Shown piece after piece: positions 1,240-3,262 of a stretch of DNA of 3,343 nt. The notes beneath the pieces are model-generated. The model made no database searches. It was not told the origin of the DNA and saw only the letters and a list, made by a program, of their open reading frames with translations. Position 1 is the stretch's first letter. The number at the start of each line of letters is the position of its first letter. Made by a program: the position numbers and the translations under genes. Origin of the DNA: a phage; sequence record PZ195125.1, one strand, 5' to 3'.

Positions 1240-1632
1240 ATGGCAACTTTACGCAGTTTCGTACTCGTCGATAATGGCGGTACGGGGAATGTTACTGTCG
1301 TTCCTGTTAGCAATGCCAACGGCGTCGCTGAGTGGCTTTCTAATAACTCGCGCAGTCAAGCTTATCGCGTAACTGCCAGTTATCGTGCGTCAGGCGCAGA
1401 CAAGCGCAAATACACCATCAAACTCGAAGTGCCGAAAATCGTCACTCAGGTTGTGAACGGTGTTGAGCTGCCTGTTTCTGCCTGGAAGGCTTACGCCTCC
1501 ATTGACCTGACCATCCCTATCTTTGCTGCAACCGACGATGTGACCGTTATTTCCAAGTCACTCGCTGGCCTGTTCAAAGTTGGGAACCCTATCGCTGACG
1601 CCATCTCTTCTCAGAGTGGCTTCTACGCGTAA
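1240..1632 (+). CDS. cp: Coat (capsid) protein, 130 aa including the initiator Met; also the translational repressor of the replicase gene
   Basis: ORF with SD GGAG at 1228-1231, 8 nt before the ATG at 1240. The translation MATLRSFVLVDNGGTGNVTVVPVSNANGVAEWLSNNSRSQAYRVTAS...IPIFAATDD...GNPIADAISSQSGFYA is, from memory, near-identical to the Escherichia phage GA coat protein and clearly homologous to the MS2 coat (FVLVDNGGTG, NGVAEWISSNSRSQAYKVT, TIPIFA, GNPIP). Stop TAA at 1630-1632. Confidence 0.96.
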   Translation: MATLRSFVLVDNGGTGNVTVVPVSNANGVAEWLSNNSRSQAYRVTASYRASGADKRKYTIKLEVPKIVTQVVNGVELPVSAWKAYASIDLTIPIFAATDDVTVISKSLAGLFKVGNPIADAISSQSGFYA

Positions 1633-1823
1633 TGGGTCTGAAAGCAAAACATAAGGAAAACCTATGTTCCGATTCACAGAGATCGAAAAGACTCTATGTA
1701 TGGATCGCACTCGCGATTGTGCTGTCCGATTTCACGTCTATCTTCAGTCATTGGATTTGGGGTCTTCTGATCCTCATTCTCCGGACTTTGATGGACTTGC
1801 CTACCTTCGTGATGAATGTTTAA
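1632..1823 (+). CDS. lys: Lysis protein L, 63 aa; small single-pass membrane protein
   Basis: The ATG at 1632-1634 shares its A with the coat stop codon (UAAUG at 1630-1634). The ORF is in a different frame from the replicase and overlaps its first 160 nt. The translation has a basic N-terminus (MGLKAKHK...RSKR) followed by a long hydrophobic stretch LYVWIALAIVLSDFTSIFSHWIWGLLILILRTL, including an LS dipeptide as in the essential LS motif of MS2 L. It aligns by eye with MS2 L (…RSSTLYVLIFLAIFLSKFTNQLL…). Size and position match the lysis gene of group II leviviruses. No convincing SD lies upstream, consistent with translation coupled to coat termination. Confidence 0.85.
   Translation: MGLKAKHKENLCSDSQRSKRLYVWIALAIVLSDFTSIFSHWIWGLLILILRTLMDLPTFVMNV
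1649..1667 (+). promoter_or_regulatory. Translational operator hairpin (coat-protein binding site) containing the replicase start codon
   Basis: Seen in sequence: ACAUA-A-GG-AAAA-CC-UAUGU. The lower stem is 1649-1653 paired with 1663-1667 (5 bp), with a bulged A at 1654, an upper stem GG 1655-1656 paired with CC 1661-1662, and a 4-nt loop AAAA 1657-1660. The replicase AUG (1664-1666) sits in the 3' arm and the SD-like AAGGA (1653-1657) in the 5' arm. This has the same architecture as the MS2 operator ACAUGAGGAUUACCCAUGU (bulged A, 2-bp upper stem, 4-nt loop). Confidence 0.88.
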
Positions 1824-3262
1824 CTAAACATCCTTCACTTGGAGATAGTAATTCGGACGCACGCCGTAAGGAATTGGCATATGCCAAACTTATGGATAGT
1901 GATCAAAGATGCAAAATCCAAAACAGTAACGGATACGACTACTCTCATATCGAGAGTGGCGTACTGAACGGCATACTCAAGACCGCTCAGGCCCTTGTGG
2001 CAAACTTGCTTACGGGTTTTGAATCTCACTTCCTGAACGATTGTTCATTCTCCAATGGAGCCTCACAAGGGTTCAAGTTGCGGGATGCAGCGCCGTTTAA
2101 GAAGATCGCTGGGCAAGCAACCGTTACAGCTCCTGCTTATGGCATCGCCGTAGCCGCCGTTAAAACGTGCGCGCCGTGGTATGCTTATATGCAGGAAACG
2201 TATGGCGATGAGACCAAATGGTTTCGTCGGGTATACGGCAACGGTTTGTTTTCTGTTCCGAAGAACAATAAAATAGATCGGGCTGCCTGTAAGGAGCCTG
2301 ATATGAATATGTACCTCCAGAAAGGGGCGGGATCTTTTATAAGAAAACGCCTTCGTTCCGTTGGTATAGATCTTAACGATCAAACGCGCAATCAGGAATT
2401 AGCCCGACTTGGCAGCATTGATGGTTCACTCGCTACTATTGATCTTAGTAGCGCTAGTGATTCTATCTCTGACCGTCTCGTCTGGGATCTACTTCCACCG
2501 CACGTTTATTCATACCTCGCTCGTATCCGTTCGTCTTTCACCATGATCGACGGGCGGTTACATAAGTGGGGTCTATTTTCTACCATGGGAAACGGCTTTA
2601 CGTTCGAACTCGAGTCCATGATCTTTTGGGCTCTGAGTAGGAGTGTCATGCTGTCCATGGGTGTTACTGGCTCATTAGGCATCTACGGTGACGATATAAT
2701 CGTTCCTGTAGAATGTGCCCCAACCCTCCTTAAGGTACTATCCGCCGTAAACTTTCTTCCAAATGAGAAGAAGACGTTTATAACGGGTTACTTTCGTGAG
2801 AGTTGTGGTGCTCATTTCTTTAAGGGTGCCGACATGAAACCTTTTTACTGCAAGCGGCCAATGGAAACCCTTCCCGATGTCATGTTGCTTTGCAACAGGA
2901 TAAGGGGTTGGCAGACCGTTGGTGGAATGTCAGATCCGCGGCTCTTCCCAATTTGGAAGGAGTTTGCTGATATGATTCCGCCGAAGTTTAAGGGTGGATG
3001 TAACCTGGATCGCGATACTTACCTCGTTTCACCGGATAAACCCGGTGTCACATTGGTTCGTATCGCTAAGGTGCGCTCTGGTTTTAACCACGCGTTCCCG
3101 TACGGTCATGAAAATGGCCGCTACGTCCACTGGTTACATATGGGATCGGGAGAAGTTCTCGAGACCATATCCTCCGCCAGGTTTAGGTGTAAACCTAACT
3201 CGGAATGGAGAACACAGATCCCTCTATTTCCTCAGGAATTAGAGGCCTGCGTTCTCTCCTGA
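1664..3262 (+). CDS. rep: RNA-dependent RNA polymerase (replicase beta subunit), 532 aa
   Basis: A 1599-nt ORF that is last in gene order. The catalytic motif C, YGDD, is at 2684-2695 in the context GSLGIYGDDIIVP. A motif-A-like acidic block IDLSSASDSISD lies at 2438-2473. Long stretches match the MS2 replicase as I recall it (VPKNNKIDRAACKEPDMNMYLQKG, GSxDGSLATIDLSSASDSISDRLVW, FSTMGNGFTFELESMIFWA, KTFxxGxFRESCGAHF, KPFY, GGMSDPRL). Stop TGA at 3260-3262. Confidence 0.96.
   Translation: MFRFTEIEKTLCMDRTRDCAVRFHVYLQSLDLGSSDPHSPDFDGLAYLRDECLTKHPSLGDSNSDARRKELAYAKLMDSDQRCKIQNSNGYDYSHIESGVLNGILKTAQALVANLLTGFESHFLNDCSFSNGASQGFKLRDAAPFKKIAGQATVTAPAYGIAVAAVKTCAPWYAYMQETYGDETKWFRRVYGNGLFSVPKNNKIDRAACKEPDMNMYLQKGAGSFIRKRLRSVGIDLNDQTRNQELARLGSIDGSLATIDLSSASDSISDRLVWDLLPPHVYSYLARIRSSFTMIDGRLHKWGLFSTMGNGFTFELESMIFWALSRSVMLSMGVTGSLGIYGDDIIVPVECAPTLLKVLSAVNFLPNEKKTFITGYFRESCGAHFFKGADMKPFYCKRPMETLPDVMLLCNRIRGWQTVGGMSDPRLFPIWKEFADMIPPKFKGGCNLDRDTYLVSPDKPGVTLVRIAKVRSGFNHAFPYGHENGRYVHWLHMGSGEVLETISSARFRCKPNSEWRTQIPLFPQELEACVLS

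Follow-up and report, generated by a model that had tools for sequence, protein, structure and literature searches.

Positions 1649–1667 of the 3343-nt stretch of phage DNA analysed in this study (the window) very probably represent the translational operator of the replicase gene of a group II (GA/BZ13-type) RNA coliphage, at which replicase synthesis would be repressed by a dimer of the coat protein. The initial annotation had already proposed a replicase operator and target of the coat repressor at this site, and this reading gained support, largely by analogy, from the identity to the site of phage GA, the position on the start codon, compensatory changes among relatives, and the coat protein pockets.

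The window covers almost the entire genome of an F-specific RNA coliphage of group II (Emesvirus japonicum, BZ13/GA). Comparison with phage records via megablast revealed a match spanning the whole window, with 95.5% identity to BZ13 strain DL20; further identities were 94.4% to phage GA, 94.3% to BZ13 DL10, and about 85% to BZ13 T72 and KU1, all five being assigned to Emesvirus japonicum, i.e., classical group II. For MS2-type genomes, the match was confined to part of the replicase gene (about 75%). The gene order is that of a levivirus, namely maturation, coat, lysis, and replicase, with the same four genes in GA and BZ13. Based on the list of open reading frames, the maturation gene was located at 51–1223, followed on the plus strand by the coat protein gene (1240–1632, 130 aa including Met, homologous to the GA and BZ13 coats and matching PDB entries 1GAV and 1UNA), the lysis gene (1632–1823, 63 aa, the homologous place being annotated as lysis in GA and BZ13), and the gene for the replicase, the RNA-dependent RNA polymerase beta subunit (1664–3262, 532 aa, annotated as replicase in GA, BZ13, and KU1). 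Compared to GA, the window is shorter by about 86 nt on the 5' side and by about 37 nt on the 3' side; with its ends inside the GA genome, it lacks the terminal replication hairpins or has them only in part.

The operator hairpin on the plus strand has the sequence ACAUAAGGAAAACCUAUGU (as DNA, ACATAAGGAAAACCTATGT) and is of the GA type. Its lower stem is formed by 1649–1653 with 1663–1667 and its upper stem by 1655–1656 with 1661–1662, both upper pairs being G-C, and the loop AAAA occupies 1657–1660. One A (1654, or alternatively 1653) is unpaired two pairs below the loop, and an extra pair (1648–1668) is possible below the hairpin. Thus, the bulged purine, the 2-bp upper stem, and the 4-nt loop described in the initial annotation were borne out by fold and sequence. 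Folding of the isolated 19-mer resulted in (((((.((....))))))) at −3.3 kcal/mol, while the minimum-energy structure of the region 1640–1675 contained the same hairpin plus the pair 1648–1668 at −4.9 kcal/mol. With flanks of 10, 25, 50, 100, and 200 nt, all of the operator pairs (7/7) were kept in the minimum-energy structure, and the hairpin was also present in the fold of 1230–1900. Pair probabilities were 0.92–1.0 with the exception of 1653–1663, which reached only 0.5 and alternates with 1654–1663, because positions −11 and −10 are both A and U1663 can pair with either of them. The two resulting bulge registers, with A1654 or A1653 unpaired, have equal predicted energy (probability 0.33 each in the 19-mer), compared to a predicted +3.1 kcal/mol for the alternative register of MS2. 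In the work of Gott et al. from 1991, binding by the GA coat protein reportedly depends on base pairing of the stem, on an unpaired purine within it, and on the bases at −4 (A) and −7 (a purine); which of the two positions the unpaired purine takes is said to make no difference, and a pyrimidine at −5 not to be strongly preferred. The isoenergetic bulge registers fit this description, and the loop AAAA satisfies both the purine rule at −7 (A) and the A at −4. The replicase AUG (1664–1666) sits in the 3' arm and pairs with 1650–1652, thereby accounting for three of the lower-stem pairs. Upstream of it, the motif AAGGA (1653–1657, plus strand; GAGGA in MS2) spans the 5' arm and the loop and, based on its position 7–11 nt upstream of the AUG, presumably acts as the Shine-Dalgarno sequence of the replicase gene.

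The 19-mer is identical in GA, KU1, and BZ13 strains DL10, DL20, and T72. In the GA GenBank record X03869 from 1986, it equals nt 1735–1753 in 19/19 bases, and the feature at 1733–1753 of that record, which corresponds to window positions 1647–1667 (offset 86), is annotated as 'pot. stem loop structure; pot. binding site coat protein'. The operator hairpin was already known, as it was annotated in 1986 and, according to citation, characterised in 1991. Generally, the hairpin at the replicase start binds the coat protein and works as a translational operator (PMC3561173). In MS2, GA, and PRR1, binding depends critically on an unpaired purine and on an A four bases 5' of the start codon (PMC3561173); for coat binding in GA through the loop A at −4 and the unpaired purine, that publication cites Gott et al. 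1991. Furthermore, the GA coat protein represses a reporter in vivo via its native site, and the GA and MS2 coat proteins revealed overlapping specificity with cross-talk on each other's sites (bioRxiv 10.1101/168625). Neither the 19-mer nor its core was found as a string in a full-text literature search.

In regard to chance expectation, thermodynamics alone proved modest (z = −2.1 to −2.3), with 7 of 200 shuffles folding equally well. The full architecture, defined in the motif scan as an RNNA loop, two base pairs, a bulged A, and at least five lower pairs, occurred once in the window compared to 0.10 expected per dinucleotide shuffle, and this single copy falls exactly on the replicase start codon at 1664–1666. 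The string of the 19-mer alone is not diagnostic, because an exact copy was also detected on an unrelated contig of 36.7 kb (L022, IMGVR_UViG_3300042090_000749) at 7377–7395, the start of a 323-aa ORF, which is a coincidence of Shine-Dalgarno sequence and ATG. The scan of IMG/VR with a degenerate pattern, in which this copy turned up, revealed mostly chance matches of this kind on large DNA-phage contigs. Therefore, relatives were retrieved by their coat protein, with no selection on the hairpin, and the replicase start was then read in each of them.

Within group II, all contigs found in IMG/VR and metagenomes (L008, L010, L026, L035, and L036) carried the identical 19-mer, and the hairpin lies within a run of 37 nt that is invariant in this group. 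Since 10.8% of all 19-nt windows are invariant among six group II genomes and three overlapping reading constraints act on the site, we rejected this invariance as evidence. Outside group II, contig L038, with a coat 73% identical to that of the window, also revealed the identical 19-mer, within different flanks and in front of a replicase starting with MSKSS. The hairpin of L037 (coat 73%) was of the fr type (ACAUGAGGAAUACCCAUGU), that of L039 (coat 63% to the window and 73% to MS2) displayed an MS2-like stem together with an AAAA loop (ACAUGAGGAAAACCCAUGU), and contigs L029, L027, L028, and L040 (coat 56–57%) shared the hairpin CAUGAGUAUAAACCAUG with the loop AUAA and a loop-closing U-A pair. 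Contigs L037, L038, and L039 are ENA metagenome contigs (OGVH01000845, OGVK01001857, and OGVH01003227, respectively) of Emesvirus-like phages, the coats of which are intermediate between groups I and II with 63–74% identity to either.

Covariation was analysed in a small sample of nine hairpins in register representing six distinct sequences; the hairpins of PRR1, Hgal1, and M were left out of this count owing to differences in loop length, by which they were misaligned by MAFFT. Among the nine hairpins, 97.6% of the pairing cells formed a pair, and both-sided changes were detected in three of the seven pairs, namely A-U to C-G, G-C to A-U, and G-C to U-A. The covariation score of 0.324 was reached by 2 of 500 shuffles (0.101 in shuffles), and pairing collapsed when the partners were slid by one to three columns as a control. 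The AUG takes part in each of the three invariant pairs. Thus, the hairpin architecture, on the conservation of which the initial annotation had made its proposal depend, is kept in relatives with compensatory changes in 3/7 pairs. Across the nine hairpins, no change was seen at the bulged A (−10) or at the A at −4, and −7 was a purine throughout; only −6 and −5 vary freely, which is the pattern expected from the published recognition rules.

The coat protein encoded by the window revealed 98–99% identity to the GA and BZ13 coats and 61% to that of MS2, and its closest solved relatives by name are PDB 1GAV and 1UNA (both GA), followed by many MS2 entries. In MS2 numbering, V29, T45, S47, R49, K57, T59, K61, E63, and Y85 are as in MS2, and differences comprise K43 to R, N55 to K, N87 to S, and E89 to D, S87 being the GA state. 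With the two adenine pockets and the −5 contact assigned as in the MS2 complex structures, the deduced coat protein keeps the adenine-pocket residues of MS2. Apart from that, residues 59 and 79 are Thr and Val in the window coat and likewise in DL10, DL20, T72, and KU1, compared to Ala59 and Gly79 in reference GA, which may thus be the exception at these two sites. Thr59, which is also the MS2 state and lines an adenine pocket there, is replaced by Ile in one group II metagenome contig (L035).

In place of the MS2-type pair, a pyrimidine at −5 read by Asn87, the window harbors A at −5 and Ser at residue 87. Comparison with the other lineages showed that Asn87 co-occurs with U at −5 (MS2 and fr), Ser87 with A (group II, L038, and L039) or U (L037), and Asp87 with A (L029 and L040); within the lineages sampled, genomes with A at −5 had Ser or Asp at residue 87 and never Asn, and the close pair L037 and L038, both with Ser87, differed in U versus A at −5. 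This distribution over about five lineages fits a relaxed reading of −5 where Asn87 is missing, but is only suggestive. As A at −5 is also found in three further uncultured coat lineages (L038, L039, and L029/L040), it may not be a peculiarity of group II, and one might speculate, with more doubt than confidence, that relaxed reading of −5, perhaps together with that of the bulge register, is widespread or ancestral, and that U at −5 with Asn87 in MS2 is a derived specialisation. In L037, L038, and L039, Ser87 was found together with loops AAUA or AAAA, and the coats of L037 and L038 additionally displayed Thr in place of Tyr85. Among solved structures and in the table of PMC10610835, no GA-type coat–RNA complex was found.

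Directly 5' of the operator, GAAAGC (1640–1645, plus strand) is predicted in the fold of 1230–1900 to pair with GCUUUC in coat codons 32–34 (1335–1340, plus strand). Both sites carry other sequences and are again complementary in MS2 (UGAAUGG with CCAUUCA), fr (GAAUGG with CCAUUC), L039 (UGGAUUUC with GAAAUCCA), L038 (AGUGGUU with AACCACU), and T72 and KU1 (GCUUUCU with AGAAAGC). By analogy, this pairing seems to correspond to the long-range Min Jou interaction of MS2, through which replicase translation depends on ribosomes opening the coat gene. In another frame, the operator sequence encodes lysis codons 6–12 (KHKENLC). The bases at 1647–1667 are thus read three ways, as these lysis codons, as replicase codon 1, and as RNA structure; a lysis-like ORF of L038 (GTG start, 60 aa) reads KHKENLC across the same 19-mer as well. 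A neighbouring hairpin at the end of the coat gene (1597–1623, plus strand), just 5' of the coat stop and lysis start, was present in the fold of 1230–1900 and corresponds to the X03869 feature at 1683–1707, a stem-loop annotated with 'pot. function in lysis gene control', which is separate from the operator. Coat stop and lysis start overlap as UAAUG (1630–1634 in the window), likewise in GA, DL10, and DL20; in T72 and KU1 (L004 and L005 among our relatives), additional bases lengthen the stretch from the coat stop to the operator, and the annotated lysis gene starts at a UUG about 18 nt after the coat stop.

Altogether, these features can be combined into a scheme in which binding, repression, and any role in assembly are put forward on the basis of what is known from GA and MS2. 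Both the AAGGA motif and the start codon of the replicase gene would be sequestered in the hairpin. As coat protein builds up late in infection, a coat dimer would bind the hairpin, which it would recognise by the unpaired A and by loop positions −4 (A) and −7 (a purine), and the bound dimer would lock the ribosome binding site, so that replicase synthesis is switched off. The same complex of coat and hairpin may also provide one high-affinity contact between genome and capsid. As a second layer consisting of RNA only, the pairing of 1640–1645 with 1335–1340 would couple the replicase start to translation of the coat gene.

Three other explanations have to be weighed. That the site is an ordinary ribosome binding site which folds by chance, is conserved through the lysis and replicase frames, and has no specific affinity for the coat appears scarcely credible to us. 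Its sequence does consist of a Shine-Dalgarno motif and an AUG, the exact 19-mer occurs at the start of an unrelated ORF in L022, the fold is weak, invariance in group II does not exceed the background, and the KHKENLC reading frame over the hairpin recurs in L038. However, a chance fold would not lead one to expect a stem kept by compensatory changes where lineages differ in sequence, nor an invariant bulged A and A at −4, a purine at −7, and a variable middle of the loop in agreement with the published recognition rules, and binding and repression have been published for the identical GA site. It is likewise very improbable, if slightly less so, that RNA structure alone, i.e., the hairpin and the pairing of 1640–1645 with 1335–1340, mainly controls the replicase by tying it to ribosomes on the coat gene, with coat repression playing a minor part. 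The predicted long-range pairing and its complementarity, maintained with different sequences in MS2, fr, L038, L039, and T72/KU1, agree with such a mechanism, and Min Jou coupling is established in MS2. Repression by the coat is compatible with it, though, as both controls operate in MS2, and RNA structure alone leaves unexplained why −6 and −5 vary when the bulged A and the A at −4 are retained along with a purine at −7.

The third explanation concerns packaging, since the hairpin might mainly or solely serve as a signal for genome packaging or initiation of assembly, with repression being secondary, which we consider unlikely. By analogy it could draw on the MS2 operator, which is the coat site of highest affinity and was long proposed as the packaging signal (PMC3561173, PMC12377776). 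However, in-cell experiments with MS2 revealed that the operator is not required for selective packaging and favoured many dispersed stem-loops (PMC12377776), and in cryo-EM models 19 operator-like loops touch the MS2 capsid (reviewed in PMC10610835). The description of the site as 'the' RNA packaging signal in the initial annotation was thus overstated, as a requirement for the operator is excluded for MS2 in cells. A scan of the window for further operator-like hairpins resulted in one weak look-alike at 907–921, which is no more than expected by chance and has no bearing on packaging. The preferred reading of a translational operator repressed by the coat dimer leaves room for such a contact, and the coat probably touches this hairpin as one of many sites.

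Searching the window with the Rfam model of the MS2 operator hairpin (RF02359) resulted in a match at 1647–1667 with 18.1 bits (E = 0.48), which is below the gathering threshold of 40 bits and covers only model positions 16–36, the hairpin half of the 36-nt model. Scores were 18.1 bits for reference GA, 20.2 for L038, 20.3 for L039, 61.3 for MS2, and 53.6 for fr. Because reference GA scores the same 18.1 bits, the low score of the window is a limit of the model: RF02359 as built covers group I only, and the score reflects this gap and not novelty. GA-type hairpins are beyond the reach of the Rfam operator family and are consequently missed by automated annotation. Otherwise, the significance of the finding is small, in that the window is confirmed as a standard group II coliphage with a standard regulatory hairpin. 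The pair of GA coat and hairpin serves as an RNA-tethering tool alongside that of MS2, and the natural loops AAAA, AAUA, and AUAA, all accompanied by a residue other than Asn at position 87, show the range that such proteins tolerate.

Among known systems, the operators of PRR1, C-1, Hgal1, and M, which are further pilus-specific leviviruses, share a hairpin over the replicase AUG with the window and differ from it in their stem sequences. In PRR1, C-1, and M, two pairs separate the loop from an unpaired A, and −4 is occupied by A (see also PMC3561173), with a 5-nt loop in PRR1 and M and the loop GGUA in C-1, while Hgal1 displays an unpaired C, an upper stem of three predicted pairs, and a three-base loop. 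The operator of the group I phage fr has the same architecture and, with its loop AAUA, the A at −6, but differs in the U at −5 and the bulge-adjacent G-C pair, and its coat has Asn87. The MS2/R17 operator (TR hairpin) is identical to the window in 16/19 bases and shares the seven pairs, the bulged A at −10, the 4-nt loop, A at both −7 and −4, and the AUG in the 3' arm. Its loop is AUUA compared to AAAA in the window, just as stated in the initial annotation, which had further described the base of the stem as A-U rich. This held for the bulge-adjacent pair, A-U in the window and G-C in MS2, but not for the remainder of the lower stem, where four of the five pairs are as in MS2. With a predicted stability of −5.3 kcal/mol for MS2 versus −3.3 kcal/mol, the fold of the window is 2 kcal/mol weaker. 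The closest counterpart is the operator of the group II phage GA, which matches the window in 19/19 bases, likewise sits on the replicase AUG, and overlaps the lysis gene as well; there is no difference at the RNA level, and the coats are 98% identical, differing in two residues.
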